From Scenedesmus sp. PABB004 (taxonomy: Eukaryota), in the NCBI GenBank assembly GCA_014905635.1, contig JABVCE010000007.1:620001-684000 (forward strand): DNA of 64,000 nt. The letters run 5' to 3'. Within the stretch, counting starts at the first letter, position 1. The number at the start of each line of letters is the position of its first letter. Shown in pieces: positions 6,345 to 53,219 of this stretch. The notes beneath the pieces were generated by a model. The model saw only the letters and a program-made list of their open reading frames with translations, searched no databases and was not told the DNA's origin. Position numbers and translations under genes: made by a program.

Positions 6345-8565
6345 GGCGCGCAGGCGCCCGAGCGGCAGCGGCGCGCAGCTGCGCACCGTCCAGCCGCCGC
6401 GCTCGAGCGCGGCGCGCGCGCCGTCGGCGTCGGCGCCGGGCGCCTCCACGCAGAGCCGCCCGCCCGGGCGCAGCACGGTGCGCAGCTCGTCCAACGCCTC
6501 GGCCGACAGCACCTCGCCGGCGGCCAGCCCGCCGTCCGCGCCGGCGCGCGTGTAGACCAGCACCGCGTCCACGCCCCCAGCGGGCGCGGCCGCGGCGGCC
6601 GCCGCGAGCGAGCCGGCGCGCAGCGGCTCGCCGCTGTACGTCACGCAGCGCAGGCCGCGCCGCGCGGCGCCGGACGCGTCGGCGTCGACCGCCAGCACGG
6701 CGAGGCCCTTGCTGGCGAGCATCTTTGACAGGGCGCCGTCACCGCAGCCGACGTGCAGCACCGCGTCGCCGCCGCCCTGGGGGCACGCCTGCGCGGGCGC
6801 GCGGGGCGGGGCGGCGTGTGCGCGGCGCCCGCGCGAGCCGCCGACCCGCGCGCGCGCGCCGCCCCGGCCCGCCCCGCCCGGCACCCGCGCCGCGACCGCC
6901 GCCGCGGCCGCCGCACCTGCAGGCCGCCCGCGGCGGCGCCCATGCGCGGGTACGACGTGCTCGCGAGCGTCACGTGCCCCGCGCCGACGAGGGCGTCCAG
7001 GAAGTCGAGCCCCGGCGGCGGCGCGCCCGGCGTGGTGGGGTCGAGCCACGGCGGCAGCCCCGCCGCGCCGCCGTCATCGTCGCTCTCGCTCTCGCTCTCG
7101 CTCTCGCTGCGCAGGCTCCAGCCGAGCAGGCCGAGGCTGGAGGGGTCGAGCGCGCCGTCGGCGGCGCCGCCGGTCGGCGCCGAGTCGATCAGGAAGCGGC
7201 GCAGCTCGTCGAGGCCGCCCACCGACAGCGTCGGCACCGCGCCCGGCGGCGGGGCCGCGGCCGCGCCGCCGACCTCATTGCCGCCGCCCTTGACGAGGCA
7301 CGTCGCGGCGCCGGCTGAGGCGCGCGCGGCGCGCGCGGGCTGGGCGGCTGCGGCGCACGCGCGCTGCGCGGGGGCCGCCCCGCGGCGCCGGCGGCGCGCT
7401 GCCGCTGCGCTCACCCGCGTTGCCGACCTCCACGTCTTCGAAGGAGTCCCCCACCATCAGCAGCTTGCCGGGGTGGAGCTGCCACGCCTGCGGGCGCGCG
7501 CGCGGCGCTCAGCGCCGCGCCGGGCCTCACAGCGTCGCCGACCGCCGCCCGCCCAGCTGGCCCTGGCCCCTTCGCCTGGCCGCGCCACCGCCGCGCCGCC
7601 GCTGCCCCAACCGCGCCGCGCCGCCGCGCCTGCGCGACGTCGAGCAGCAGGCGCTTGTCGGGCTTGACGTAGCGGAACTCGCGCGTGCGCACCTCGCTGA
7701 ACAGGGTGCGCCACTCCTCGCCGATGAGGGCGAAGAGCGCGGCCACGCTGGGGCGGGCGCGCACGCGCGGACGCGCGGACGCGCGGACGCGCAGGCAGAC
7801 GCGCACGCGCGGCGGTGGCGGCGGCGGCGGCGGCGGCGGCGGAGCTCGGGCGCAGGCCAGGGAAGCGGCGGCAGGCGCGGCGGCGGCGGCGGCGGCGGGC
7901 GGCCACGGCGCAGCGGCGCGGGGCGCGCCGGCCGCGCGCCGCGCGCCGGCCGCACCTCGCCGTCGTGTTGCGCGTGACGAGCGCGACCTTGACCTGCGGC
8001 GGCGGCGGCGGGGCGGAGCTCGGCGGCTGCGCGCTGCACACGCTGCGCGCGCGCCGCGCGCCCCGCCGCGACCCCGGCCGGCGCGCACGTCGGCGTCGCG
8101 GAGCATCTCCAGCAAGTCGATCAGGCCGGGCTTGGCGCTCACGCGCGCCGCGGCCTCGGCCTCAATCTCCAGTATGATGTCCATGCTCGCCTTGATGCGC
8201 CCCGGCTCCTCCCACGACTCCATCGCCACAAACAGGTCCCCGACCGGGATGTCTGCACGCGCGCGCGGGTGCGCGGGTGCGCGGGCGCGCGGCGCGGGCG
8301 CGGGCGTAGGTGCGGGGCGCGCGGCGCGTTGTGCCCGTTTTGCGGCGCGCACGCGCGCACCCGTGCGGCGGCGCATGTCCGCGAAGTCGATGTGCGCCTC
8401 GGTCAGCGTGCCGTCCATGTCAAACACGACCCCGTCGTAGAGCAGGCGGCGGCGGCGCGTCGGCGTGGCGCCCGCGGTGCCGCTGTTCGCTGCGGCGCGG
8501 CGGCCCGCGCGGCGCGGCGCGGCGGCCCATTGGCGGCGCGCCGCCCGGCCCAGGGCGTCCTGCAT
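6327..8565 (-). CDS. HAD-superfamily hydrolase with C-terminal class I SAM-methyltransferase-like domain, multi-exon
   Basis: HAD motif I VVFDMDGTLT, LVTRN, KPD and MVGDSFEDVEVG. C-terminal VLHVGCGDGAL...LAVDAD resembles MTase motifs I/II. Start codon uncertain. Confidence 0.8.
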
Positions 8566-9122
8566 TGCACAGCGGCGTGCGGGCTGCTGAGCGAGAGCGG
8601 GGGCGCCGCGCCGCGGAGCTGCAGCGCTGCCGCCGGTGCCGCTGCGAGCGGCCTGTGTTCGGTGGCGCTCGTCGCCGTGCTTCTCGCCTGAGCAGCTCGC
8701 GGCGGACAGGGTGGGCCAGGCGGCTGTTCAGCTGAGCAGGCGGGGCTGCTCGGCGGTTCAGGGCGGCACGCCGCGACCGTCTGCACAATCCGGTGCGCGG
8801 CGCTTGGGCACCAGATCGTGCACGGTCGGAGGCACGCAGCGGTCACCCGCGCCCGGCGAGAGCCGCCCGCGATGCAGCGCTCGTCGATCGCGCGCCAGTA
8901 CGCGCGCTGCGGGCAGCCCAAGCCGGCGCGCGCCGCGATGGATGGCAGCCTGTGAGGCGGGTGTTGTGTGGTGCGTGCGTCGCGGCCGGTCGGATCGCGC
9001 ACTCCGCCGCCGGGCGCGTTCCGGAAGATTCATGCCGCCGCCCCGCCCCGCCCCGCCCCGCGCCGCGCCGCGCCGCCCCTCCGTCAGGCTCCACGGCCTC
9101 GGTTGAGGGCGCGCTGGGCGCC

Positions 9123-9389
9123 ATGGAGCCGGAGCCGCCGCCGCCGCCGCCGCCGATCGGCGGCGGGCAGCAGGAGGCGCAGCAGCGCGCCGGCGCGCCG
9201 GCTCAGGCCGATCCCGCGCACCCCGTGGCGCCCGCCGGCCTTTTCGCGCTGCCGGTGCTGAACTGGGGCGCGCCGCAGCCCGCGCCGCAGCCGGCGGCGC
9301 CAGCGCAGCCGCGCCCGCCGCCGGCTGGCGCCGGCTGGCGCCGCGCGTATCGCGGGCCGGCAGAGGACGACTGGCTGCAGCCGCCGGAG

Positions 9390-9439
<50 letters not shown>

Positions 9440-12400
9440 GCAGCGCGCGGGCGCGGCGCCGCGGCACCCGCCCGCCGGCGGCGGCTTCGCGTACCAGGAG
9501 GTGGTGCGCGGGCAGGCGCGCCAGGACCTGCCGGGGCACGACTGTGCCCAGTGCCGTGACTTCTACGACGCCCTCTCCACCTGGGGCGCGCCGGCGCCGG
9601 GCACCACGATGCTGCTCCCGTGCGCCCACGCGCTGGCCCCGGCCGCGCTGCAGGCCGCGTCGCGGCACCGCGCCAAGCACGCGCCTCCCGAGACCCCGCC
9701 GGGGTTTTGGGACATCGGGTTCGCGCTCGGCGGTGGCGGCAGGGGCAGCCCCGGGCCCAGCAGCAGCAGCAGCGGCAGCGGGAGCGTCAGCGGGAGCGGC
9801 CGGCGCGGCGGCAGCCCGGCGCCGCGGCCGGACGACGCGCCGGTGCCGGCGCCGGCGCCGCCGCCGCCCGTGGCGCCGCAGCAGCGGCAGCCGCAGCCGG
9901 CCGCGCCGCGCGGCGCGCCGGCGCCGGCGCCGCCGCCGCCGCCGCCGCCGCCGGAGGAGCTCATGGCGCCCGCTGGCACGTGCAGCGGCGCCCAGCTCCG
10001 CGCGCTGCAGTATGAGCTGTGGCGCTGCGGGTTAGAGCTCGTGCACGGCCGCGCCGACGGCCTGTGCGCCTACTACCTCATCGCGGCGGCCATGCTGGGG
10101 CTGCTGCACACGGCGCTCCCGCGGCAGCCGCACGAGGACGTGCGCACCTTTGACGCAGCCACGATGCCCGTGCTGGAGGAGCAGGCGCTCCAGCTGCGGG
10201 CGCTGACGGCGCGGCGCGTGCTGGAGCTGGGGCTGAACGACGCGATGCACGACAGCGGCGTGCCGTGGCGCGAGGTGTTTGTCGACGCGGGTGGCGAGGC
10301 CGCCGTGCGTGCGCTCGCGCAGAGGGTGGCCGGGGGGGGGGGGGGGGGGCTACCCCGGCGAGGCGGAGCTGCGGGCCCTGTGCATGCTCCCCCGCCTGGG
10401 GGTCTCCCTGGGCCCGACGTTCAGCCCCGACACGCTGCTCATCGCCCTCCGGACGCTGGGCGACACGCTGCAGGCGAGCGAGGGCAACCTGCTCGTGCTG
10501 TTTGCGCTGCCGGCCGCCGCGGCGCCGGCGTTTGCGCCCCTGTTCGGGGCGCAAAACCCGCTGCCGCTCAACCACTGGGCGGCGGTGGTGCGGGCGCGCA
10601 GGCCGCCGCCGCGCAGCCCGCCGGCGCTGCTGGGGCAGCCGCGCGAGCCGCCGCGCGGCGCGCCGGCGGTGCTGCAGCAGGCGCGCGAGCCGCCGCGCGG
10701 CGCGCCTGCGCAGCAGCGGCTGCAGGAGGCGGCGCCGCGCGCCGCGGAGCTCGCCGCGGACAGCAGCGACGAGGAGGGCGGCCCGGCGGCGGGCCAGCCG
10801 CTGCAGCCGCTGCAGCCGCTGCAGCCGCAGCAGCTCGGGCGCAAGGAGCGCCGCGGCAAGGGCAACGGCGCCGCGGCGCCGCTGGGCACCAGCAACAGCG
10901 ACAGCAGCAGCAGCAGCCGCCGCCGCCGCCGCGCCGCGACCGCCGCCGCCATTGACGCGGCGTGGGAGAAGCCGGTGGAGCGCGGCGCGGAGCTCGACGC
11001 GTCCAAGGCGCGCGCCGAGGCGGCCGGGCCGTCCGACGAGGACGTGCGGCGCTCCAAGCAGCGCGCGAGCTACGACGCCAAGCACGCGCGCCGCGGCGGC
11101 GGCGGCACGAGCCGCGCGCGCAGCGACAGCGCCGGCGGCAGCGCCGGCAGCAGCACCGGCGGCGGCACGAGCGGCGCGCGCAGCGGCGGGGGCACCCCGG
11201 GCCCCCGCCCGCGCGCGCATCGACCCCGCCGAGTGCGCGGCGCAGCCCGTGGAAGGCGCCGGCTGGGAGGCGCTGCGCCGCCACGCGCAGGCCCGCGGCG
11301 AGGCCGCCCGCGCGGCGGCGATGGCGGCGGTGCTCTCGGCGCCCGCCGCCAGCGTCGGCTCGTCCGCCGGCAGCGCCGCGGCCAGCAGCGACGAGGAGGA
11401 GGGCGGCCCGGCGGCGAAGCGCGCGCGCGGCGCCGACGCGGCGCAGCGCCGCAGCCGCAGCCGCGGCCGCGGCCGCGGCCGCGGCCGCGGCCGTGCGCGC
11501 TCGCGCGGCAGCGCCAAGGCCGCGACGCGCGGCGGCCGCACGCCCTCGCGCGGCGGCGGCGCGCGCGCTCGCGCGGCGGCGCGGCGGCGGCGCCGCGCGG
11601 CCGCCGCAAGCGCTCGCGCGGCGCCGACGAGGCGTCGGGGCGTGCCTCGCCCGCGCGCGGTGCAGCGGCGGCCGAGGCGGGCGACAAGGCAGGGCGGCAG
11701 CAGCAGCAGGCGCTGCCGCGGCACTTCGCCAAGCGCAGGAAACAACAGACCGAGCAGGCCAAAAAGGCAGCGGCTGGCTCTGGCATGCGTGAGTGTGCCC
11801 GCCGCGCGGCGCGCCGCCGGGGCGCCGGGCCGCTGTCTCGGCACCCTGCGCCGCCGCCGCCCCGCGCCCTGCCCGCGCCCCCCTCACCTGCCCTCGCCCG
11901 CCCGCCCGCCCGCCCGCCTCAGGCGTGCGCGTCTGCGCGCTGCGCGGCGCCGTGCGCAAGCCAGAGGTGGTGCCTTTCCTTGAGGCGCTCGTGCGCGCCT
12001 ACAGCCTGGTGGGCATCCTGGGCCGCGACGCGCACCACGTGGCGCTCGTGTATGGGGCCAGGTGCGCGCGCGCGCGGGTGGGCGTGCCCGCGCGCTGCGC
12101 GCGGCGCTTTGCGCCCCCCTCCTCCTCGGCGCCGCCCGCCGAGTCGCGCCGCCCGTCCGCCCGCCCGCCCGCCCGCTGCGCAGCCGGCTGTACGGGCTCG
12201 ACACGCGTCAGCCGCCGCCGCAGCCGGCGGCGCAGGAGCAGGAGCAGGGCCAGCAGCAGCCGCAGCAGGCCCAGCAGCCGGCGCCGCCGCCGCCCGCGTG
12301 CGCCTGCTACCTGCAGGCCGCGTGCGGCGGCGCGCACCTCGTGTACGACCTGATCGACTTTTTCAGCCAGGGCAACTGGCGGCGCGTCGGCGGCGGCCTG

Positions 12401-14220
12401 TCCAGCGACCTGCGCCATGCCCTGGAGCAGGCCTGCGGCGCCAACGAGCTGCAGCGCGTGCCCCTGCCGGCCTGGGTGACGGGCAACCTTCACCACTGCC
12501 TGCTCGCCCCGCTCGCGGAGCTGTACAACACCAACATGCAGCTCCACCTCGCTGACGGCCAGCGCCTGGAGAAGGCGCTCGACGCCGCCGCCCTGCAGGC
12601 GTGGTTTGCCGCGGGCTGCACCGGCACGCCCAGCCGCGCCACGCGCGACTGCCTCATCGCCGGCGGCGCGGCGCTGCTGTACAGCGCGTCGCCGCTGCTC
12701 TGGGAGCGCCAGGGCGTGCTGCAGCCGGGCGAGGGCGTGGTGCCCGCGGCGGCGGGCGACGGCCAGGACGCCGGCCGGCTGCGGCTGGCCATGGCGATGA
12801 TGCGCGACATGCTCGCGCAGATGCGCCTGCACCTGGAGCAGCCCTACCCGGCGGCGGCGGACGGCCAGGCGCGCGCGCCCGCGGCCGGCGCGGCGCGCAC
12901 GCGCCAGGCGACAGGGGCGCAGGCGACGCCCAGCCTGCAACGCTGGGAGTCGGACGAGGCGGCCGGCAAGCACGGCCGCGTGCTCGACTGGGCGCGGAGC
13001 GGCATGCCGCGCGCGCCGGACGCGGGCGCGCAGGCAGGGGGCGCGCCGCTCGTGCCGCAGCCGCCGGAGCCGCTGGCGCACGGCGCGGGCGCGGCGGCGC
13101 GGCAGCAGCACGACGCGGCCTACGACGCCTGGCGCGCGGCGCTGGCCCAGCAGCTCGAGGGCCTGGCGTACCGGGAGGGCGACGCCGACGCCATGGCGCG
13201 CCGCGTCGCGCGCGACTTTGTCGTCATGCGCGGCCAGCAGCACATGTTTGCTGCCTGCGCGCCGCGGCTGGCGGACTCGCTGGCAGCCCAGCAGGGCGCA
13301 GCGGCGCGGCCGGCGCTGGAGGCGATGCTGCGCCGCGCCGCGTCGCTCGGGGCGGCCCCGGAGCAGCCGTCGGCCGGCGCGCTCGCGGCGGCCGTCGCGT
13401 TGCTGGCAGAGGCGCTGGACGGCAGCAGCGGGGGCAGCGGCAGCGGCAGCAGCCGCAGCAGCCGCAGCAGCCGCGGCCAGCGTCCGCCGGCGCCCCGCAA
13501 GCTGCTGGACGCCAGCGCCCAGGAGCCGCGCCTGCGCGAGCTGCAGCGGGCGCGCGAGCTGGGCAAGCTCGAGGCGGCGGTGCAGCGCCTGCGCGCCGCC
13601 GTGGATGCCAGCGAGGCGGCCGTGCGTCTGCGCAAGGACCCCCTCAAGGCCCTGCAGCTGGAGGTCGCCGGCGCTGCGGTCCCTGATCGCCACGCCCGCA
13701 ACCGGCTGCGCCGCCTGCAGCGCAAGGACGCGCACGCGGCGGCGCTCCGGCGCCGGCTGGCCGCCGCGGAGGCGCGGCTGCTCCGCGCCCGGGGGCAAGG
13801 CGCCGCGCCGGGCGCGGCGCCGGGCCAGGGGCCGGGCGCGGCGCTGCCGGCCGCGGCCGCGGAGCGGCTGCGGCTGGCGCTGGCCGCGCTGACCGCCGCC
13901 GGCGACGCGACGGTGGGGGCCGACCTCGCAGCCGTGGAGGCGGAGTGGCAGGCTGCCATGGCGCAGCACCACGAGCGCGACGCCGCGCTTGTGCACCACC
14001 AGCGGCGCCTCGCGCGGCCGCACGGCGCGGCGGCGGCGCCCGACGCGGACGCGGCCCGCCGCGCGGTGGACGCCGCCGGCGCCGCGCGTGACCAGGGCAC
14101 GCGGCTGCTGGGCGACTGCGGCGCCCGACTGGCGGCCGCGCGCGGCCTCCTGGCGGCCGCGCGCGGCCACCTGGCCGCCGCAGCGGCCGCGCAGGGTCGC
14201 GCTGCGCCGGCGCCGCCGGC

Positions 14221-14271
<51 letters not shown>

Positions 14272-16090
14272 GCCCGCGCCGCGCACGCCCGAGGTGGCGG
14301 CGGCGGCTGTCGCGGCGCTGCGTCGCGAGGTCTCGACCGGCTTGCGCCGTGCGGTGTGCGCGACGCTCGAGGCGGTGCTGGCTGCGGCGACCGCCGCCGG
14401 CGCGGCGCCGCCGGCGGCGGCGCCGGCGCCGCCCGGCGACCGCAGCGGCGGCGCGCAGCCGCCGCAGCGCGCCGGCGGCGCGGGGCAGCACCCCGACGCG
14501 CTCGTCGCGGTCGCGGGCGCGTGCAAGGTGATGCGCGCCCTGCGCTCGCGGCACGCCGCGCGCGTGGCGCTGCCCAAGCGGCGCGCCTTCACGCTGGCGC
14601 CGGTGCCCAAGTACGGCACCCAGCACCTGCACCTGTCCACCTCGGGCATGCAGGCGCTGGACGCAGCGCTGCGCGCGCGCCAGGCCAAGGCGCCCGCTGC
14701 GGGCCAGCCGGCAGGCCAGCCGCCGCCGCCACCGCCGACCCAGGAGGGCGGGGGCTACGATCCCGTTTGGGATGCATATTTTCATTTTGGCCGGCGCCCC
14801 GGGCGTGCGCGCGGCGTGCTGCACGCCAACACGCGCTTTGCGGGCTCGGTGACGTTTGATCTGGCGGCGCTGCACGTGCGCGTGCGCGTTGAGGGCGCCG
14901 CCGACCCCGCCCCGCGCCGCGGCCAGCAGTCGCGCGCCGCCAAGGCGGCGCAGCGCGCGGCAGAGCACCGCGCGGGCGTGGAGGCAGCGCAGCGGCTGCT
15001 CTGCGACGCGCTGGCGCCGCATGGCGTGGCCGACGAGGCGGCGCTCGTCGCGCTGCCGCTCGACCCGTGCGAGCTGCGCGGCGTGGAGGGCCTGCCGCCG
15101 GGGCACGCGCTGCGCGGCGCGGCCGCGGCCGTGCACGCGGGCGTGCGCATCGTTGGAATCGACCCGGGCCGGGCGCGCATGATATGCGCCGCGACTTGGC
15201 GGCAGGGCCCGGGCTGCATGCGCGTCGCGCACCGCCGCATCGCGCAGCGGCGCTGCCCCAACGCGCCGCGCAGCCGCGACGACCCCGGCCGCCGCTACGA
15301 GGCGGAGAGCATCATCCGAATAAAGACCGCCGCGCACCGCGACTCGCGCGGGATCGAGCGGCACCGCCTATGGCAGCAGGGGCGGCCGGGGCGGCCGGGG
15401 CGGTACGACCGCCGCCCGCCCGCCGGCGGCGACTGCGTGCATGCCTGCCTGAACCGCGTGCCTGCCTACTCGGGCACGAGCGTCGCCGCCGCCGGGGCGT
15501 GGCGCAACGGCCGGGTGCATCATGTGTTGGACAATGCATTCGCATATAGCTTGCTTGCGTGCCGTGCAGAGTGTGCGTGGCGGCTGCGGAAGCACGGGCT
15601 GAAGCAGCGCGCGCTGCATGCGGCCATTCAGTTGACCGCGTACGGCCGGGTCTTTGTGCGCGGGCGCGTCCGGCCGCACGCGCGCCTGCCCGCCGACCTG
15701 CCCGCGGTGGTGCTGGGCATCGGGGACGCCAGCCTGGGCATGGGGGGCTGCATCTCGGGGCCGGGGCCGCCGCGGCAGGCGCTGCTGGCGCTGCTGCGCA
15801 CTTATTATGCGCGCCGGCGCGTCGCCGCGGTGCTCATGGACGAGCACCGCACGAGCGTCACCTGCTCGGTGTGCGCGTCGCGCATGGAGAAGCTGCGGGG
15901 CATTTACGGTCTGATGCAGTGCCCCGGGTGCACGGTCGTCGCGCCGCGCGACGACAACGCGGCGCGCAACATCTGCGCGCTGACGCTGCACGAGTTGCTG
16001 CCCGGCGGCCGAGGCACGGCCGGCGGCGCGCGCCTCGCCGGCGCGTTCCGGCAGGCGGCCGCTGCCGCCGCGGTGGGACCCCCGGCGTGA
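9123..16090 (+). CDS. Giant Fanzor1 (TnpB-family RuvC RNA-guided endonuclease) with N-terminal CtIP/Sae2-like and OTU-like domains. Model: 9123-11788, 11923-12061, 12184-16090, with a frameshift at the G18 run 10332-10349
   Basis: RuvC-I VGIDPG (Asp codon 15161), VLGIGD, RuvC-II MDEHRTS (Glu 15842), CSVC...CPGC zinc finger, RuvC-III RDDNAARNI (Asp 15950). Fanzor1-like upstream motifs FTLAP, VWDAYFHF, FAGSVTFD. Two phase-compatible GT-AG introns at 11789-11922 and 12062-12183. The Fanzor call is strong; fusion to the 5' domains is less certain. Confidence 0.85.
9486..9722 (+). other. CtIP/Ctp1/Sae2/COM1 C-terminal domain within the Fanzor locus
   Basis: FAYQEVVRGQARQDLPGHDCAQCRDFY...SRHRAKHAPPETPPGFWDIGF carries the EVVR, CxxC, RHR and TPxxFW motifs of the CtIP C-terminus. 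Confidence 0.88.
10020..10590 (+). other. OTU-like cysteine protease domain, split by the G18 frameshift
   Basis: LELVHGRADGLCAYYLIA (DGxC, Cys codon 10065), LQLRAL, then after the G-run YPGEAELRAL and LNHWAAVV (His codon 10573). Motif order matches OTU-family proteases. Confidence 0.6.
14222..14269 (+). repeat. (CAG)16 poly-Gln tract in the Fanzor insertion region
   Basis: Perfect CAG run. A second, imperfect poly-Q tract lies at ~9396-9443. Confidence 0.95.
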
Positions 16091-16690
16091 GCGGCGTGTG
16101 CGGTGCGCTGCGCTCTCCGTCCTGGGCAGGACGTTTAAAGGCCTCTTGCTGTTGTGTGTTGCCAGGTTAGGTCAGGCGTGTGCGCGTGTGTTTCTCGCAT
16201 GGCCACCCGTTCCGGGTGGGGGGCACCCCCTCTCGCGGGGGCACCGACCGACGGGCCGGTCCCAAACCGTCATGCCTCACGCCGCTGTGGCCTGTTTCAG
16301 GCGGCCGGCGTTGATAGGCTGCCCATGGTCGGTGTTGGCGGCGGCGGCGCGCGCGCGCGGCGGTGGCAGCGCCGCGCACGCGCGCCGCGCGCCCGCGGCG
16401 CCGGGACGCCCCCCGGGGCGCCCCGGCAGCCCCCATCCCCCAGCCGCCGGTGTTGAGACCACCGGCCGGCGCTCCCACGGCGGTTGCGAGCCGGCGGGGA
16501 GCACGCCCACTGGGCGGGTTGAAGCCGCTGCACCCCGAGTGCCACCGCCCGCCCCTGGCCGCCCACGCACCACCCAGCGCCGATCAGGAGCACCCACTAG
16601 GCGGGCAGGCGTGGCGGGCCGCGGGTGAAACCGCTGGCAGCAGCACAGGCCTCGCGCTCGCGGACCAGGCCTCACACTCCCGCTTTAATT
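16091..16690 (+). ncRNA. Candidate Fanzor omegaRNA / structured right-end region (boundaries unknown)
   Basis: Directly 3' of the Fanzor stop, where Fanzor/TnpB guide scaffolds are encoded. Many stems, e.g. CCACCCG/CGGGTGG 16203-16219, CACCGACC 16242-16249 with GGTCGGTG 16327-16334, and GCCGGTG/CACCGGC 16446-16466. Confidence 0.55.
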
Positions 16691-16874
16691 GCCCTCGACG
16701 AACCACCGGCCCCCGACACGCTCCTGCGCCGCGGCACCGCATCCGGGAGCGCTGCAGCCGCCGGCGGGCGCGCGGCGGTTGTGCTCGCAGCAGCAGCGGC
16801 GGCGCCGCTCTCGCCTCTCCGGCAAGGCGCAGGTGCCAGCCAGCGCGCGGCGCGGCGGCGGCACGGTCGCCGCG

Positions 16875-18457
16875 ATGCAGGCCTCCAAGCGCAAGGCCGC
16901 GTCGGCGCGGCGCAAGGAGCGCAAGGAGGCGGAGGAGCTGAAGCAGCTGCTGCTGCTCGTGGGCGACTTCCTCGTCACCGGCATCTGGGTGCTGATCTCC
17001 TCGGGCTTCTCCGAGGCGCGGCGCCGCCGCCGCCGCGCGGCCCGCGAGGCCCGCGCGCCGCCGGCGCCGGCGCCGGGGCCGCGGCCGCACGCGGCGGCCG
17101 CCGAGCGCCGCGCCGCGCCGCGCCGCGCCGCGCCGCGCAGGCCGCCGCGATGCTCGCCGGCATCAGCGGGCTCGGCGAGTTTGCGCTCGCAGTCGCGATG
17201 ACCTGCGCCGCGCTGCTGATGATGGGACCGATGTGCGACATGTTTGGCGGTGCGCCGCGGCCCTGGGCGGCGGCGACGCGGCCGGCGGCGTGGCCGGGGG
17301 GCCGCAGCGGCGCGGCGGCGCGCGGGTTGAACATGCGCCGGCGCGGCGCGCAGGCGCGATGTTCAACCCGATCCACAACGCCGCGTTTGTGTGCGCCGGC
17401 AAGGGCACCGTGCGCATGAACGCGGTGCGCATGGCGGCCCAGATCGGCGGCGCGCTCGCGGGGAGCTACACCGCGGTCGCCATCACGCCCGACTGGATGA
17501 AGCAGTGAGGCGGCGGCGGCGGCGGCGCGCACACAGCGCGCTGGCGCCCGCCCGCGGCGGCGCCCGCCGACGGCCGCGCCGCGCGCGCCCGCCGCAGGCA
17601 CTTTCCCAAGCTGCCGGGTGGGCTGAAGGAGGGCGTGGCGCTGCAGGCCGGCGTCGCGGTGGAGATGGTCTGCGGCCTCGTCATCAACCTGGTCGTGCTG
17701 CACGCCATGGGTGAGAGGAGCGGCGGCGGCGGCCGCGCGGCGCGTGTAGCACGCTGGAGCCTGGCCGGCCCGCGGCAGCGGCCTGCGGTCGAGCGCGCCG
17801 CCGCGCCGCAGACACCAAGAACCGCATCGTCGCCTACTGGGCGCCGATCGTGGCGACCGTCGCGCTGGTGCGGCGCCGCGCCGCGGCGGGGCGCCCGCGC
17901 CCGCGCCCGCGCCCTGCGCCCGGCGCCCTCGCGCCGACCCGCGCCCGGCGCCGGCCCCGCGGCGCGCAGATCGTGGGCGGGTCGTACTACACCGGCCCCT
18001 CCATGAACCCGGCCATCGTGAGCCCAGCCAGCCGCGCCGCCAGCGCCGCGGCGCCGGCCCCGGCGGCGCCGTGCGCTGCGCGCCGCCGCCGCCCCGGGCC
18101 TCCTCTGCCCAGCGCCGTGCGCCGCGCGCGCCGCCGCGGCGCACACGCGCAGGCCTTTGGCTGGTACCATCACTACGGCGGCCACCCCTGGGTGGAGCAG
18201 ATCGCCGTCTACTGGGCGGCGCCCTTTGCCGGAGTGCGCGCCGCGGGCGCGGCCGGCGCCGCGCGCCGGCGCGGGCGCGCCGCGCCGCGGCCACGCCGAC
18301 GCCCGCGCCGCCCGCCGACGGCCACGGCGCCGCGCCTGCGCAGGCGATGCTGGGAGGGCTGCTGTACCGCGCGGTCGCGGGCCGCGCCGAGCCGCCCCGC
18401 GCGCCGCGCAGCCTGCCGGCGGGGCTGAAGGCCGCCGCGGGCGCCAAGGAGGAGTGA
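16875..18457 (+). CDS. Aquaporin/MIP-family channel, SIP-like, multi-exon
   Basis: LVGDFLVTGIWV, variant first loop FNPIHN, MAAQIGGALAG, VEMVCGLV, second loop GPSMNPAI, VYWAAPFAG, and a basic C-terminus ending AKEE*. Confidence 0.85.
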
Positions 18458-18474
18458 GCGCCAAGGAGGAGTGA
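18441..18474. repeat. 17-bp perfect tandem duplication including the aquaporin stop codon
   Basis: gcgccaaggaggagtga x2. Confidence 0.95.
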
Positions 18475-19032
18475 GCACCCCGCGCGGGGGCAGGGGGCGG
18501 ACCGCCGCCAGCGGCGGCGGCGGCTGCGGCAGCAGCAGCGCGCGGCTGCTGCGGGCCGGCAGCCGTCTGGGGCCGGGCGCGGCGCGGCGTCGGCAGCAGC
18601 GGCTGCCCGGGCTGGGACGTGGGGGCGGTGCGGACGTCGGGCGTGGCCTTGCGCGCCCGGCCGGAGCAGACAGGGGGTGGGGGCGTCTGGCTGAGTAGTG
18701 GGCCAGGCGTGGGGTGGTTGCTGCTGCTGTTGGCTGCCGGCGGCCGCGGCGGCACAGTTTTGGGGGCGGGCGGCACGTGCACTGCGATGGAGGCGACGGG
18801 TGACGGACCACGGGGCCACGCGTTACGTCCGCGCGCTGCGCGCCGACAGCGCAGCCCCTCACACCCGCGTGCCTGCGCGGGCTGCCGCTGCAGCCACGCG
18901 CCGGCAGCACCCGCAGGCCCAGCCGACTGTCGCCGCGCCGCCGCCGGGACTGCTGGCACGCGCGCCGCCCCCACGACCTGCGCCGGCTGCCGCTGCAGCC
19001 GCGCGCCGCCCGCCCGCGCGTGCAGCGCGCGC

Positions 19033-20232: not shown

Positions 20233-22446
20233 ATGGCCTCCCCGCTCGCCGCAGACCCCACGCGGGGCGGCGGCGCGCCGCGCTGCGCCGCCGCCGCCCG
20301 GCGCGGCGCCGCGGCGCGCCGGCCGCTCGCCGCCGGCGGCGCGCGCCACCGGCCGTGTGCCGCCGCCGGGCCCGCGCCGCCCCGCGCGCTGCCGGCGGAG
20401 GCGGACGCCGTGGTCGTCGGCGGTGGGCTCGCGGGGCTGAACGCCGCGGCGGTGCTCCGCCGCGCGGGGCTGCGCCCGCTCGTGCTCGAGGCGTCCGACG
20501 GCGTCGGCGGCCGCGCGCGCAGCGACGTGGTGGAGGGGTTCACGCTCGACCGGGGGTTTCAGATCTTCCTCACGGGGTACCCGGAGGCGGCGGCCACGCT
20601 CGGTGCGGCGCGGCGGCGGCGGCGGCGGCGGGCGCGGGGCGGGGGCTGTGCGCCCGCACGCGAGCGCCCACGAGCGCGCCGCGCGCGAGCGAACGCGCCC
20701 GCCCCGCCCCGCCCCGCGCGGCACGCGGCGCGGCGCGCAGACTACGAGGCGCTGCAGCTGCGCCCGTTTTACGCGGGCGCGCGCGTGCGCTTCGGCGGCG
20801 CCTGGCACACGGTCGCCGACCCGCTGCGCCACTTTTGGGACGGCGTCGCGTCGCTCGGCAACCCCATCGGCAGCGTGGCAGACAAGGTCAACGTGGGGCT
20901 GTTCCGGTGCGCAGGCGGCGGGGGCGCCGGGCGGCGCGCAGCGCGCGCTGCAGCGGCGGCGGCGGGGGCCCGTCAGGCGAGCGTGGCGCGACGCACCGCG
21001 GCCGCGCGCGCGCGTGCACGCAGGATCAAGTCCCTGCTCGGCCCGCTGGACGCGATCTTTGAGCGGCCAGAGACGACCACGCTGGAGCGCCTGCAGGCGC
21101 GCGGCGCTGCCGGCGCCGGCCCGCCCGCCCGCGGCCCGCGCCGCGCGGCGCGTGCCGCGTGTCGCGCCGCGCCCACGCGCGCCGCGCGCCGCGTCCGCGT
21201 CCGCGTCCGCGCCCGCCAGGCGGAGGGCTTCAGCCCCGCCATGGTTGACCGCTTCTTCAGGCCCTTCCTGGGCGGCATCTTCTTCAACACCCAGCTGTCG
21301 ACGTCGAGCCGGCTGTTTGAATTCGTGATGCGCATGCTCGCGACCGGCTCCAACTGCCTCCCCGCGGCCGGCATCGGCGCGATGGCGGGCCAGCTCGCGG
21401 CGGGCCTGCCGGACGACAGCGTGCTCACGGGTGCGGCGCCGGCGGCGGCGCGGCGGCGGCGCGGGGTCGGCCGCGCGCGGGCGGCGGGGGCGGCGCGGGT
21501 GGCGCCGCCGACGACCCGGGCGCCGGCGCGGCGCGCAGGCGCCAAGGTGCAGCGCGTGACGGCGGCCGCCGGCGGCCGCCCGGCGTGCGTGGAGCTGGCG
21601 AGCGGGGAGACCGTGGCGGCGGCGCACGGCGTGGTCGTGGCGGTCGAGGGCCCCGAGGCATGGCGCTTGCTGGGCGAGGCGATGGACGTGCGTGGGGGCG
21701 CTGGCGGCTGCAGCGCGCCGCCGCCGCGCCGCCGCTGTGCCGCCCGCGCCCCGCCGCGCCGCCAACGCCGCCGCCCGCCGCCCGCCGCCGCCGCGGCGCA
21801 GGTCGCGCCGTCCAAGAGCGAGCCGGGCGTGGGCACGGCGTGCGTGTACTTCCGCGCCCCCGCGCCGCCCGCGCCCGACCCCATCCTCTACCTCAACGGC
21901 ACCGGGGAGGGCCTGGTCAACAACTGCTGCTTCCCCAGCACCGTCGCGCCCTCGTACGCGCCGCCGGGCCAGGTGCGTGCGCGCAGGCGCCCAGCCGCTT
22001 CGCCGGTTTGGCGCCCGTTTGGCGGCGCGCGGCGCCCGGCGCCGCGCCCCGACGCCGCGCGCCCGTGCGCGCAGACCCTGGTGTCGGCCTCGGTCATCGG
22101 CACGCAGCCGCAGCTGTCCGACGAGCAGCTCGTCGCGGCGGTGCGGCGCGAGCTGGCGGAGTGGTTTGGCGGCGCCGCGGTCGACAGCTGGAGCCACCTG
22201 CGCACGTACCGCATTCCCTATGCGCAGCCCAACCAGGCGCCGCCGACCAACTTTACGCGCCCCGTCGCGCTCGGCGGCGGGCTGTTTGTCTGCGGCGACC
22301 ACCGCGACAGCGCCACGTTTGACGCCGCGCTGCGCTCGGGGCGGCGCGCCGCCGAGGCGCTGATCGCGGCGGCGGGGACGCGCGGCGCCGGCGGCGCGGC
22401 GCCGGCGCTCGCGGCGGCGGCGGCAGCGCGCGCCGGGAGCGCGTGA
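20233..22446 (+). CDS. FAD-dependent oxidoreductase, flavin-containing amine oxidase/phytoene desaturase-like family, probably plastid-targeted; 7 exons
   Basis: VVVGGGLAGL...LEASDGVGGR...DRGFQIF (Rossmann fold plus GG motif), FFRPFLGGIFF, YRIPYAQP and FVCGDHRDSATFDAALRSGRRAA. Ala/Arg-rich N-terminus. Introns at 20603-20740, 20907-21023, 21097-21219, 21431-21538, 21688-21801, 21973-22074. Confidence 0.9.
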   Translation: MASPLAADPTRGGGAPRCAAAARRGAAARRPLAAGGARHRPCAAAGPAPPRALPAEADAVVVGGGLAGLNAAAVLRRAGLRPLVLEASDGVGGRARSDVVEGFTLDRGFQIFLTGYPEAAATLGAARRRRRRRARGGGCAPARERPRARRARANAPAPPRPARHAARRADYEALQLRPFYAGARVRFGGAWHTVADPLRHFWDGVASLGNPIGSVADKVNVGLFRCAGGGGAGRRAARAAAAAAGARQASVARRTAAARARARRIKSLLGPLDAIFERPETTTLERLQARGAAGAGPPARGPRRAARAACRAAPTRAARRVRVRVRARQAEGFSPAMVDRFFRPFLGGIFFNTQLSTSSRLFEFVMRMLATGSNCLPAAGIGAMAGQLAAGLPDDSVLTGAAPAAARRRRGVGRARAAGAARVAPPTTRAPARRAGAKVQRVTAAAGGRPACVELASGETVAAAHGVVVAVEGPEAWRLLGEAMDVRGGAGGCSAPPPRRRCAARAPPRRQRRRPPPAAAAAQVAPSKSEPGVGTACVYFRAPAPPAPDPILYLNGTGEGLVNNCCFPSTVAPSYAPPGQVRARRRPAASPVWRPFGGARRPAPRPDAARPCAQTLVSASVIGTQPQLSDEQLVAAVRRELAEWFGGAAVDSWSHLRTYRIPYAQPNQAPPTNFTRPVALGGGLFVCGDHRDSATFDAALRSGRRAAEALIAAAGTRGAGGAAPALAAAAAARAGSA

Positions 22447-23660
22447 GAGGCGAGGAGCAATGGCTGGGCATGTGATTACAGGGCCCAGTCAGTGCGAGCG
22501 CGCCAGTCCGGTCGATGCCTGCGCGCCAGGAGCGCCAGCTGTACGCACCGTCGTGTGCATGTCGTGTGCAAGGCAACAGGGCAGCCGGCCCGCCGGCGCC
22601 GCGCAGGGCGCCAAAGCAAGTCGTGCCGCCGACCACGTGCGTGCGTTCACCTGCAGCCAGCCCAGCCCAAGCCCCAGCGCCGCCCCCCTGGCCAGCCGCT
22701 GCAGCAGCAGCTTATTGTCGGTGCACGCTCACAGCGTTTTCTTTCTTTTCTTGTTTTGGGACGCGCCTTGCGTCCACGTGGCTTGATCATCGGCGCGCCA
22801 ATGCGCGTGCTCGTTGCGGCAGGGCTGGCAGGCGCACGAGCGCCGCCAACTTGGCCAAGTGCGTTTGGGGCTCAGCGAGCCCCACCGCCATCACTCGTTC
22901 ATCACGGCAACCCTCAGTTGAATGGGCGTCCGCGCGCGCGCGTGCGTGCAAGCCTCACAGGCGAGGCGCCGCAGCGCGCGCGCCCAGCCCCGCCGCCGCC
23001 GGCGGCCGCGCACCGCAGGGCGCGCACAGCCTCGCCTCCCCCCCCCCCCCCCCCCCCCCCCCCCCACCCAACCCATACACACGGGCCGCAGGGATCAGCC
23101 GCCCAGGTCGCATGAGCCCACCGCCTCTGTCGTTCCCTCACGGCACACGCGTTTGATGGTTGGTCCCAGCCGGGTGGCTCTGCGCGAGCCGACCGGGCAA
23201 GCCCACCCACGCCGATTGACCCGATGGGGCGAGGTCGCCCCATCGCCGCCCACCGCCCACGCCTCGGCTGGATAACAGGTGACCCAGCCCACACACACAC
23301 TGGAGCAACGATTGCCCCCGAATGGAGCAATGAGTAGCCCCGACTGGAGCGCTGACTGCCCGGAAGACAGCGTACGCACGCGCGTACGCACACCCCCCGC
23401 CGCACGGCCCATACCCGCCCACCTCAGCTCGCGGGCAGCAGCGCGCCCTTCTTGCCTAGGCCGGACTGTTGTGTGAGCGTGTCCCACACGGCACGTGCGT
23501 TGGGTGGTCCCCGCCCAGCCACGTCGCCGGAAGAGAGGCGCTTTATGTGAGGCCAGCGCGCCGAAGGTGGCGCCGCGCATCGGCCACCCCCGCACGCTTA
23601 AACTCGGTGCAAACGATGCCAGGGATGCTGGGTGCAGCCTGGGCCCCTCGCTCCCACGCC

Positions 23661-26600
23661 CTAGAGCGCGTAGGAGCGCCTGGCCGGGGAGGTGACGATC
23701 GACTGGCAGATCTGGGTCACCAGGGTCGGGAAGTTGCCCGTGCACGACTGGCCGTTGCAGGGCACGGCGCAGCTGATGCAGAAATCCTCGAACTCTCCCA
23801 CTGTCGCCGGCGGCGGCTTGGCGCAGCAGCACACGCCGTTGGACTTGCAGGGGTTGCCGCCCACGCTCGAGCACGTGCCGGAGCCGGCGCAGTTGGCGAT
23901 GCAGTGGCAGTCCCTGCCGCCGGCCTTCTGGCAGTCGCTGTCGCCGCACGTCAGGCCGCAGCCGGTGCTGCCGGGCAGCTTGGGCGTGCACACGCCGCCG
24001 CAGCAGCATGAGTCCAGCAGCGTCGAGCACTGCGCGTCGGTGGTGCACGTGGCTGCGGCGGGCGCGCGACGCAGCGCGGGCGGCGTGAGGGCGGGCAAGG
24101 ACGTCGCGCGCGGCGCGCGGCGCGCGGCGCGCAGCGCCGCCACCGAGGCCGCGCCGCCGAGCGCGCAGCCTCACTTGAGCAGTTGGTCAGCGGCTTGCAG
24201 ACGCCCGCCGCGCACGCCGCGCCGCAGGTGTTGTTGACCGCGCTGCTGCAGTCGGTGCCGTTGCCGACGGGGATGCGGTAGCACTGCCCCGTGACCGTGT
24301 CGCACTGGCCCAGGTTGCACACGTCCGCGGCGTCGTTGCAGTCCAGCGGCGTCGTAGTGCAGCGGTCGTTAATCTCATCGCACACCCCAGCCAAGCACTT
24401 CCCAATGCCTGCGGCGGCGCGGGCGGCGCGGGCGGCGTCGCGCCTCGGCGGCCCTCGGACGCACGCTCGACCGGGCGGGGCCGGCCGCGCGGCCGGCCGC
24501 GGGCACGGCCGCCGCGCCGTGCGCCGCGCGCCGCGCGCCGCACCTGAGCAGTTCCGGGGCGTGCCGCCGCCGCAGACGCCGGCGCGGCAGACGCTGGTGC
24601 CATCGACCGTGCAGAAGAGGCCGTCGTCGCAGACCGTGTTGTCGGGCTTGGCCTGCGCCGAGCACGTGCCCGTCGCCGGGTTGCAGACGCCCACGGTGCA
24701 CTGGCCTGCGCGGCGGCGGCGGCAGCGGGCGCGGCGGCGGGCGCGGCTCGGCCGGCGTTCGCCTGGGGGCGCGCCGCGGCGCCGCCGCTCGCCGCCGCCG
24801 CACGGCGCCGCCGCACGCCGCCGCGCGGCGCCGCCGCACCGTTGAGGCTGCTGCAGTTGGTGGGGGTCACGGTGCAGGTCTTGTTCTTCTCGTCGCAGGT
24901 CAGCTTGTTGCACTTGTTGGTGGGGTCGACCGCGGGGCACGTCGGCTGCCCGCCGCCGCACTTGCCGCCGGTGCACGTGGTGTTGGAGGTGCAGAACACC
25001 CCGTCGCTGCACGCGGGGGCGGAGGCGGCGGCGCGGGTGCGGCGTGAGCCCCCGCCCCGCGTGCGAGTGACGGCGGCGGGGGCGCAGCCAGCGGCGGCGG
25101 GGGCGCAGCGCGCTGCTGCGGGCCGCGCGCTCACTCGCAGATGGTGCCGTTGGCGCGGGGCGTCTTCACGCACTGGCCGGTGGCGGCGTCGCAGGTCGCG
25201 GTGTTGCACGCGTCGGCGGCGGCGGTGCAGTTGTTGAGCGCGCCCGGCTTGCACACGCCCTTGTCGCAGGTGTCGGCGCTGCACTTGCCGGTGCCGACGT
25301 CGCAGGCGGTGCCATCGGGCTTGTCCACCGTCTCGCAGCCGCCGGCGGACTCGCTGCACTTGGCCGTGCGGCACTGGTCCGGAATGAGCGGCACCGGGCA
25401 CACGAGCGGCCGGCCGACGCACTGGCCGGCCGAGCAGGTGTCGCCGGTGGTGCAGGCGAGGCCGTCGTTGCAGGGCTGGCCGTTGTTGGCGGGCTGGCGC
25501 TCGCAGGCGCCGGAGTTCGGGTTGCACACGCCTGCCGGGGTGGGGGGGGGGGGGGGGGGGGGCGGGGGGGGGGGGGGGGGGGGGCGCACGCGCGCGGCGT
25601 GTGAGCACGGGCGGGCGGGCAGGCGGGCGGGCGGGCGGGCGCGCGGCCGCCGGCCGTGGTGCCGCGGCGCCGCCGCGCACCGACGGAGCACTGGTCGTTC
25701 AGCGCGCTGCAGTTCTTCTGCAGCTGGAAGCAGGCCTCGTACGTGTTGTCGCACACGCTCTGCAGGCACAGGTTGAAGACCAGCGGCACGGGGCAGGGGC
25801 GCGCCTCGCCGCCGCTGCACACGCCTGCCGCGGGTCGGGTGCGCACGCGCAGCGTGTGAGCGCGGCCGGGCGGGCGGGCGGGCGGGAGGCGCGCGGGCGC
25901 GGCGGGCGCAGCGGGCGCGGCGCGGCGGCGCCGCCGCGCACCGGCTGTGCACTTGGTGTTGACGTTGCAGAAGAGCCCGTCGTTGCAGGGCGTGTTGTCG
26001 GGCCGCGCCGTGGCCACGCACTTGCCGGTCGCGTTGTTGCAGGTGCCGGTGTTGCACTCGTCGTCGAGGTCGGTGCAGTCGCGCGCGGGCCCGACCGTGC
26101 AGACGCCGGCCCGGCAGACGTCGGCGCTGCAGACGCCGCTGCCGGTGTCGCAGTAGCTGCCGTCAGGCTTGGGGCCGAGCGCGCAGCCCGTGCCCTCGAT
26201 GCAGACGGGCTCCTGGCACGTGCTCGTCGGCACGATGTTGGAACAGTCGAGGGGGATACCGACGCAGTCGCCGCCGGAGCAGACGTCGTTGGTCGTGCAG
26301 GTGAGACCGTCGCTGCACGTCGTGCCGTCCGGCTTGTGCCGGGTCACGCACGTGCCGTTGACGCTCAGCGGGTCGCACACCAGCTGCTTGCACGTGTTGG
26401 GGTGCGCGGGGCAGACCTTGGGCGTGCCGGCGCAGGTGCCGATGGGGGTGCAAACGTCGTCGACGGTGCAGGGATTGTTGTCTGCGGCACGCGCGCACGC
26501 ACGGGCGCCAGCCGGGGCGGGGCGCGATCGCTCACTCGCTCCGCGCGCCGCGCGCGCCGACCCTTGGCCCCGCGCCAGCTCTGGAAGCCTGGGCGCCGCC

Positions 26601-53014: not shown

Positions 53015-53219
53015 GCAGTTTGCGGCGGCATGTGCCTCACTGGCAGTTGTGGGCGGGCGCCGCGCGGCTTGGCACGGCCCGCGCGGTCGCCGCGCCTTTG
53101 ATTGGGGGCGGGGGGGGGGGGGGGGCGGCTGACCCGGCGGCGCGCTCAGTTGTTTACCGCTCGCTGCCGCGCAGCCCCCCGCTGCAGAGCCCCTCAGCTC
53201 AGCGGCACAGCCCCTCGGC

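Follow-up and report, generated by a model that had tools for sequence, protein, structure and literature searches.

We analysed a window of 64,000 nucleotides (nt) from Scenedesmus sp. PABB004 (contig JABVCE010000007.1, positions 620,001 to 684,000; coordinates below are those of the window). Starting at 9123, one locus carries, in colinear order on the + strand, coding sequence for a CtIP C-terminal domain, an OTU-like segment, a basic linker and, behind two introns, a Fanzor. A sequence-only reading had proposed that a single protein encoded here joins an RNA-guided Fanzor nuclease to a CtIP/Sae2 domain and an OTU-like protease, next to a structured RNA. G+C content is 73-82% throughout the 64-kb window, and stop-free frames of hundreds of codons were seen in all six frames. 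Because G+C is near 80% and long open reading frames (ORFs) occur in every frame, an open frame or a missing stop codon is weak evidence of coding; our coding calls were therefore based on codon-position G+C and on a log-odds score of codon usage, for which confident exons served as the training set. The locus is laid out as follows.

9123 to 9464 (+): start codon ATG in the context GCC ATG G, opening a Pro/Gln-rich leader that includes poly-Gln; frame 0, codon score positive from ~9100.
9465 to 9722 (+): SAE2/CtIP C-terminal domain with the CxxC, RHR, TP and FW motifs kept; Pfam PF08573.
9723 to 9962 (+): Gly/Ser/Pro low-complexity linker, frame 0, stop-free; ORF and codon signal.
9963 to 10331 (+): OTU-like N-half, frame 0, with D-G-L-C at 10056; motif only.
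10332 to 10349 (+): G18 run, where the coding frame switches from 0 to 1, followed in frame by GGG CTA C; codon statistics.
10351 to 10600 (+): OTU-like C-half, frame 1, with G..EL.AL (10357) and NHW (10570); motifs and a strong frame-1 codon score.
10601 to 11788 (+): acidic/basic linker with the clusters RRKRSR and KRRK, which resemble nuclear localisation signals (NLSs); ends with ATG 11785 and then the GTGAGT donor.
11789 to 11922 (+): intron 1, GTGAGT...CAG, 134 nt, phase 1; GT..AG, codon signal lost.
11923 to 12061 (+): exon 2, 46 codons, frame 0, without ATG; codon statistics.
12062 to 12183 (+): intron 2, GTGCGC...CAG, 122 nt, phase 2; GT..AG.
12184 to 14500 (+): N-terminal extension of the Fanzor exon, ~770 codons, no known family; profile and homologue searches without match.
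14501 to 16090 (+): TnpB/Fanzor core, stop codon at 16088-16090; Pfam TNB, NCBIfam TnpB models, PDB chains and motif.
16091 to 16350 (+): 3' flank, the expected place of a Fanzor guide RNA; present in related contigs with small indels.

Pfam PF07282 (Cas12f1-like_TNB) matched the Fanzor ORF with E = 2.9e-8 (34.2 bits against a cut-off of 26.3) and the core with E = 6.6e-9. The NCBIfam TnpB models matched weakly (E = 6e-5 to 9e-4, below their whole-protein cut-offs), and the PDB chains matched by the core were those of TnpB-like protein L79 (E = 0.016) and LaTranC. The motif D-X(125,275)-[TS][TS]-X-X-C4-X(5,50)-RD, described for Fanzor and TnpB proteins by Bao and Jurka (2013, PMC3627910), is complete. 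The Asp of GIDPG (RuvC-I) lies at 15161-15163, and TS follows 230 residues on, from 15851, within DEHRTS at 15839-15856; CSVC (15863-15874) and CPGC (15920-15931) make up the C4 zinc finger, and the RuvC-III RD (15947-15952) stands five residues (TVVAP) behind the second CxxC pair. The Asp/Glu/Asp triad and the zinc finger are intact. The Fanzor of the sequence-only reading was thus confirmed by a TNB profile above its cut-off, which covers the last ~70 residues of the Fanzor exon, and by the complete Bao-Jurka motif. AlphaFold2, run on the core as a single sequence, gave an unusable model with a mean predicted local distance difference test score (pLDDT) of 40.6, and the core found no match in searches of metagenome, prokaryote-genome and viral contigs.

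The extension ahead of the core (12184-14500) combines a Cys/His-rich, globular-looking part, coiled-coil-like Arg/Leu/Ala stretches and a poly-Gln run, and matched no family in Pfam or NCBIfam. Its piece at 12296-12721 had no homologue among proteins of 250-2000 aa, and residues 880-1368 of the Fanzor ORF had none among proteins of 752-2394 aa. Together, extension and core form exon 3 (12184-16090), a single open 3.9-kb exon of strong codon bias with no stop or frame change, which far exceeds the neighbouring host exons of ~200-600 nt. Both introns are canonical GT..AG introns with a C-rich tract before CAG, and their phases match the flanking coding frames, which agrees with the two phase-compatible introns seen by the sequence-only reading. 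No ATG lies near the 5' end of exon 2 or exon 3; with both introns canonical, this places the start of the Fanzor ORF in exon 1. The end of this exon reads ...GGC ATG C, then GTGAGT, with ATG 11785 as its last full codon.

We compared the window with seven DNA metagenome runs, each with a small share of it, using only the parts with contig cover. Related short contigs, 93-99% identical to parts of the locus, occurred in four runs from three studies. Among the 28 differences listed in 15285-16078, which are the best-supported ones (93 more lie beyond the table), 17 fall at third, 6 at second and 5 at first codon positions. Because the triad and zinc finger are intact and the relatives' differences are biased to third positions, the Fanzor part looks as if it were still maintained. 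Two contigs (record 7 of run X1 and record 16 of run X2) are colinear with the window, and other contigs (record 21 of X3 and record 30 of X5) carry deleted variants: 56 nt are missing (15646-15701), and 15948-16056, where the RD motif lies, is replaced by 13 letters. Intact-looking and deleted variants coexist in the environment, which would fit a multi-copy, decaying family. The sole protein relative found, P0152, is a 271-aa hypothetical protein (NCBI name) of Scenedesmus sp. PABB004, 94% identical over 84% of a 103-aa query from the Fanzor C-terminus. The model of its gene takes a Met inside the Fanzor as its start and continues into an OB-fold gene. Because this OB-fold gene is absent from the window, P0152 suggests that there is a second locus, which would mean mobility or duplication.

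The CtIP/Sae2 C-terminal domain was likewise confirmed. Pfam PF08573 matched it with E = 5.8e-12 (47.1 bits against a cut-off of 19.8), and in an alignment of 16 sequences (the window copy and 15 homologues) all 11 invariant and all 5 near-invariant columns are present, the invariant residues being V14, R15, R19, L22, C27, C30, F33, H68, T77, P78 and W82. Both the profile and this full set of residues bear out the domain named by the sequence-only reading. The Pro/Gln-rich leader opened by ATG 9123 was confirmed as well. A phmmer search of 1.84 billion representative proteins with the piece covering CtIP domain, linker and OTU-like N-half found 438 homologues at E <= 0.001, none below 1e-30. 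In each of the 150 listed, it was the CtIP part that matched best. Of 149 homologues tallied, 129 have no more than 30 residues behind the domain; the longest tail measures 115 residues, the longest of these proteins 1,283 aa, and the tails inspected are low-complexity only. The combined domain order expected by the sequence-only reading did not appear, as no OTU or Fanzor continuation was found in any CtIP-domain homologue among the 150 of 438 matches listed; this comparison is a weak test of the architecture, since this CtIP copy has no recorded close relative. A metagenome contig search with the CtIP/OTU query returned one locus (L001, 52% GC), where an intron interrupts an ordinary CtIP domain and the 4.3 kb downstream contain neither OTU-like nor Fanzor sequence.

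The OTU-like protease domain was not confirmed. Neither half matched Pfam up to E = 10, either separately or with the region read through the frame break, and the same queries found nothing in PDB sequences or NCBIfam. Profile searches thus supported two of the three families named by the sequence-only reading, SAE2 and TnpB/Fanzor, and left OTU without a match. A single-sequence AlphaFold2 model of the read-through region, at a mean pLDDT of 40.7, was unusable for a fold search. The OTU consensus places a catalytic Cys in D-G-x-C, then a His in x-H-aromatic, with G..EL.AL between them. The segment contains such a triple at 10056, 10357 and 10570, in OTU-like order and spacing and spanning the frame break; it is unique in the six frames of the 64 kb, with patterns that were chosen post hoc. 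An OTU identity of the segment is therefore possible, and rests on motifs. In a related contig, the three listed differences in the OTU-like N-half (of eight in that contig) all fall at first or second codon positions.

At the G18 run (10332-10349), the part encoding the CtIP domain and the OTU-like N-half is +1 out of frame relative to everything downstream. Two related metagenome contigs span the run, and both keep the offset from frame 0 to frame 1: in record 18 of X3 (depth 6.0) the G-run is 9 shorter than in the window, and in record 10 of X2 (depth 2.6, less safe) it is 6 shorter. Record 17 of X3 covers 9965-10301 without gaps. Because both spanning contigs keep the same frame class, the offset seems real and common to relatives, and an assembly slip at G18 is probably the less likely explanation. 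Run length is 18, 12 or 9, and every difference among the three is divisible by three; under neutral homopolymer drift this would be expected about once in nine. The CTA codon after the run is very rare: in confident exons it makes up 2 of the 2,851 codons, and 2 of the 268 that encode Leu; the poly-G run together with this codon may be a recoding site or a chance arrangement. A short intron from GT 10326 to AG 10362 that would bridge the frame change was rejected, since it measures 37 nt here and 28-31 nt in the relatives and is too short.

Frame 1 is open from 10237 to 12555, and the charged linker described by the sequence-only reading was found behind the OTU-like segment and is NLS-like. 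Within the linker, codon bias fits frame 2 in an island at ~11200-11520 and frame 1 on either side. A direct repeat (10752-10834 and 11374-11464, 78% identical, offset 622 nt, that is 1 mod 3) encodes SSDEE(E)GGPAA in two different frames. Because the island overlaps this repeat, we read it as a segment duplicated internally and inserted out of frame, with frame 1 left intact. Three independent frameshifts were rejected, as the frame changes near 11200 and 11520 cancel and the island overlaps the repeat. The claim that only one indel separates the locus from a full-length protein was formally right, since frame 1 is open over that range, and skipping one base at the G-run gives a spliced length of 6708 nt or 2236 codons. 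However, the codon statistics show the out-of-frame island, and the G-run offset is common to relatives. Likewise, no stop codon follows the CtIP domain, as claimed, which means little in a window of this G+C content with open frames everywhere.

The codon signal is unbroken from ~9100 to 11788, with no gap longer than ~120 nt without coding signal. By comparison, the Fanzor stop and the gene after it are 786 nt apart, with no coding signal in between. At 80% GC an open frame says little by itself; because the codon statistics leave no non-coding gap in 9123-11788, the continuous codon bias suggests one transcription or coding unit. Of the single CtIP-OTU-Fanzor unit proposed by the sequence-only reading, the colinear order and the coding continuity stand, and the OTU identity, the single translatable ORF and the joint mRNA are putative.

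The adjacent structured RNA of the sequence-only reading found no support: 8700-17000 had no Rfam match, and the folding of 16040-16340 was no better than that of shuffled sequences (z = -0.38). The 3' flank was found in related contigs (records 8, 16 and 30) with small indels, which is uninformative because the intron is equally conserved. Searches for terminal inverted repeats at the locus returned GC-rich simple sequence only, and Helitron2 ends and hairpins could not be defined there.

Apart from this locus, the genes of the window are of the ordinary intron-rich eukaryotic type. A Pfam scan of 137 codon-biased ORF pieces recognised an alpha/beta hydrolase, an RRM protein, a methyltransferase, an amine oxidase, an Ariadne-type E3 ligase, a trypsin-like protease, DnaJ/TPR, NKAP and WDR3/Utp12 proteins and Cys-rich repeats. 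The divergent upstream neighbour (7411-8727, -) shows by eye a HAD-type hydrolase motif, DMDGTL, and the downstream neighbour (~16876-18430, +) appears to be a membrane protein with an NPA motif; the exon pieces of both are without a Pfam family. An uninterrupted, strongly codon-biased 1.8-kb ORF piece at 53223-55049 (-), of 609 aa and without a Pfam family, is the second-longest intron-free coding stretch of the window. Long homopolymers occur at 23038-23065 (C28), 25542-25584 (two G21 runs one base apart) and 53110-53125 (G16); the lowest G+C of the window (0.725) is found at 22001-24000, and G+C skew is elevated to 0.115-0.13 at 24-28 kb. TGTAA is the usual green-algal poly(A) signal. It was not found in 8000-18500 and occurs once per strand in the whole 64 kb, and the poly(A) signal of this organism probably differs from it.

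Taken together, we tentatively favour, without giving it an even chance, the reading that this is a transposon-type Fanzor gene of chimeric make-up, in which the captured CtIP/OTU-like head has by now lost its frame and the nuclease part is maintained. In this very GC-rich green alga, the gene would be a lineage-specific, Fanzor1-like three-exon gene whose long exon 1 took up the CtIP/Sae2 domain and the OTU-like segment ahead of the NLS-rich linker, and it would most likely have originated as a single chimeric ORF. The host's own CtIP is probably a different gene, and the domain seen here a captured paralogue. At present, translation from ATG 9123 would yield a CtIP-domain protein ending in ~200 out-of-frame codons, and the Fanzor part would need an internal start at ATG 10384 or ATG 11785. 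If active, the Fanzor might make an RNA-guided cut at the vacant site of its element, followed by repair that restores the element, by analogy with other Fanzor and TnpB proteins. Common transcription of the parts, their capture by a mobile element and any activity are what we infer from the arrangement of the locus. Several observations weigh against this reading. The CtIP domain retains every invariant residue, which is unexpected in a dead fragment unless the break is young, and the multiple-of-three run lengths hint that the frame across the G-run still matters. One of the two contigs that span the run, at depth 2.6, could be erroneous. Exon 1 closes with 16 codons of which six have A or T in third position, unlike the rest, and the end of this exon could be the 5' untranslated region (UTR) of a separate Fanzor gene. 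Moreover, no transposon ends, target-site duplications or second copy were found in the window, and the "transposon-type" label is drawn by analogy and from the paralogue elsewhere.

A fusion protein that is still made, either intact or recoded, is doubtful. That the protein is intact, with G18 an assembly error for G17 or G20, is improbable; a protein of ~2,236 aa would then carry CtIP-C, OTU-like and Fanzor parts and make a guided cut at which CtIP recruits or activates MRN and directs repair to homologous recombination. The shared strand, the continuous codon bias, the phase-compatible introns and the intact CtIP motifs, including the TP site, agree with it. Removal of one base at the run joins the halves of the OTU-like triple, itself a post hoc pattern, and the NLS-like clusters lie upstream of ATG 11785 and would be lost from a Fanzor starting there. 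It is opposed by both run-spanning contigs, which keep the frame class, by the CtIP homologues, whose matches and sizes are as given above, and by an OTU-like segment that has neither profile nor fold support. It is very unlikely that the offset is real and used, through a +1 ribosomal shift at GGG-CTA-C or RNA polymerase slippage that would give a short CtIP protein and a rarer full fusion. The +1 frameshift site of Ty1 is CUU-AGG-C, and the layout here resembles it, with the rare Leu codon CTA in the A site after a slippery Gly run; the run lengths in the window and both spanning contigs leave the same residue modulo three. However, only two contigs could be compared, one of them at the low depth noted above, the shift would fall inside the putative OTU domain whereas known programmed shifts fall between domains, and codon scores of the zero-frame product after the run are strongly negative. 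For the wider proposition that one gene encodes a Fanzor with its own CtIP/Sae2 domain and possibly a deubiquitinase-like module, with the full form made only by +1 recoding at GGG-CTA-C, we see a small chance.

Alternatively, the two parts could be separate neighbours, namely a frame-broken small CtIP-C/OTU-like gene and an independent Fanzor gene that starts at ATG 11785 behind a 5' UTR at ~11500-11784. In that case a Fanzor element would have landed next to the small gene, and the frames between the two would be open simply because GC stands at 80%. We consider this unlikely, although it accounts for open frames in all six frames, for an ATG directly ahead of the GTGAGT donor, for the A/T-ending codons at the end of exon 1 and for a weak codon score in 11520-11790 (0.16-0.34 against 0.4-0.8 bits per codon elsewhere); the C-terminal place of the CtIP domain in nearly all homologues tallied also agrees with it. 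However, a 3' UTR, a promoter and a 5' UTR would be needed between the parts, and no signal-free stretch is found there. In addition, frame 1 is preserved across the duplicated island, and a Fanzor from ATG 11785 would be without the NLS-like clusters. That the whole locus is a dead relic, with neither part expressed or functional now, is highly improbable. The frame break in the head, the deleted variants in related contigs and the 770-codon extension for which no homologues were found are what such a relic might show, and they are set against a 3.9-kb exon without stop or frame change, intact catalytic and zinc-finger residues and the third-position bias of the relatives' differences (17 of 28).

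Fanzor and TnpB proteins are thought to aid their elements in that the host repairs the break from a copy that still carries the element. In eukaryotes end-joining often wins, so this cut-and-copy strategy should work poorly. The mechanism put forward by the sequence-only reading is possible by analogy, as it can be derived from the known behaviour of CtIP and from TnpB homing: a cut, then CtIP-driven resection and homologous recombination would make a coherent course of events, every step of which we infer. If true, this would be the first mobile element to encode repair-pathway choice alongside an RNA-guided nuclease, and editing tools that favour homology-directed repair could be modelled on it directly. 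In its recoded form, the element would cut the vacant site, push repair to homologous recombination and dose the fusion against the short CtIP-domain product. Read more cautiously, the locus would show that a Fanzor gene has captured a DNA-repair domain, and would offer a poly-G tract at which recoding may occur. Searches of full-text papers, which did not extend to the supplements of the Fanzor surveys, turned up no account of a Fanzor-CtIP/Sae2 or Fanzor-OTU protein in nature; Fanzor and CtIP appeared together in a 2026 editing review (PMC13674456), and the papers on Fanzor domain fusions dealt with engineering.

The conserved motifs of CtIP are known as CxxC, RHR, T-P and F-W. In all of these conserved residues the window domain is like canonical CtIP/Sae2/COM1 factors (PF08573), but its setting differs. 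Canonical homologues carry the domain at the C-terminus and have an N-terminal oligomerisation region, whereas here the domain spans residues 115-200 from the start, is followed by at least 200 further codons and is preceded only by a 114-residue Pro/Gln leader, in which no N-terminal coiled coil was seen. Engineered Cas9-CtIP fusions raise homology-directed repair and share with this locus the idea of a resection factor tethered to a programmable nuclease; they use an N-terminal CtIP fragment, whereas the locus has a C-terminal Sae2-like domain, and its natural protein is hypothetical.

Among known Fanzors, the green-algal Fanzor1 proteins are the nearest comparison (Chlamydomonas reinhardtii CRe-1/2/3; CrFNuc, Fanzor1c). 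As they are described, they share with the window locus the D...TS..C4...RD motif, introns, a chlorophyte nuclear genome, a variable N-terminal half and NLS-like basic clusters ahead of the nuclease. In contrast, the window locus has ~770 extra codons in the core exon and CtIP-C and OTU-like coding sequence upstream. Fanzors are reported to be compact, at ~600 aa (PMC10530073), and an N-terminal NLS is among their described features (Jiang et al. 2023, PMC10530073). Intron-containing green-algal Fanzor1 genes are reported to be carried by non-autonomous Helitron2 elements (PMC3627910, PMC10530073). Bacterial TnpB and IscB have been described as guide-RNA homing nucleases that keep their transposon in place through break-induced recombination (bioRxiv 10.1101/2023.03.14.532601, 10.1101/2023.11.20.567912). 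The nuclease role expected here would be alike, with a cut at the vacant site and repair from the element-bearing copy. However, as these reports describe them, the bacterial systems depend on host recombination and have no repair-pathway module of their own, whereas the window locus includes coding sequence for a CtIP domain.

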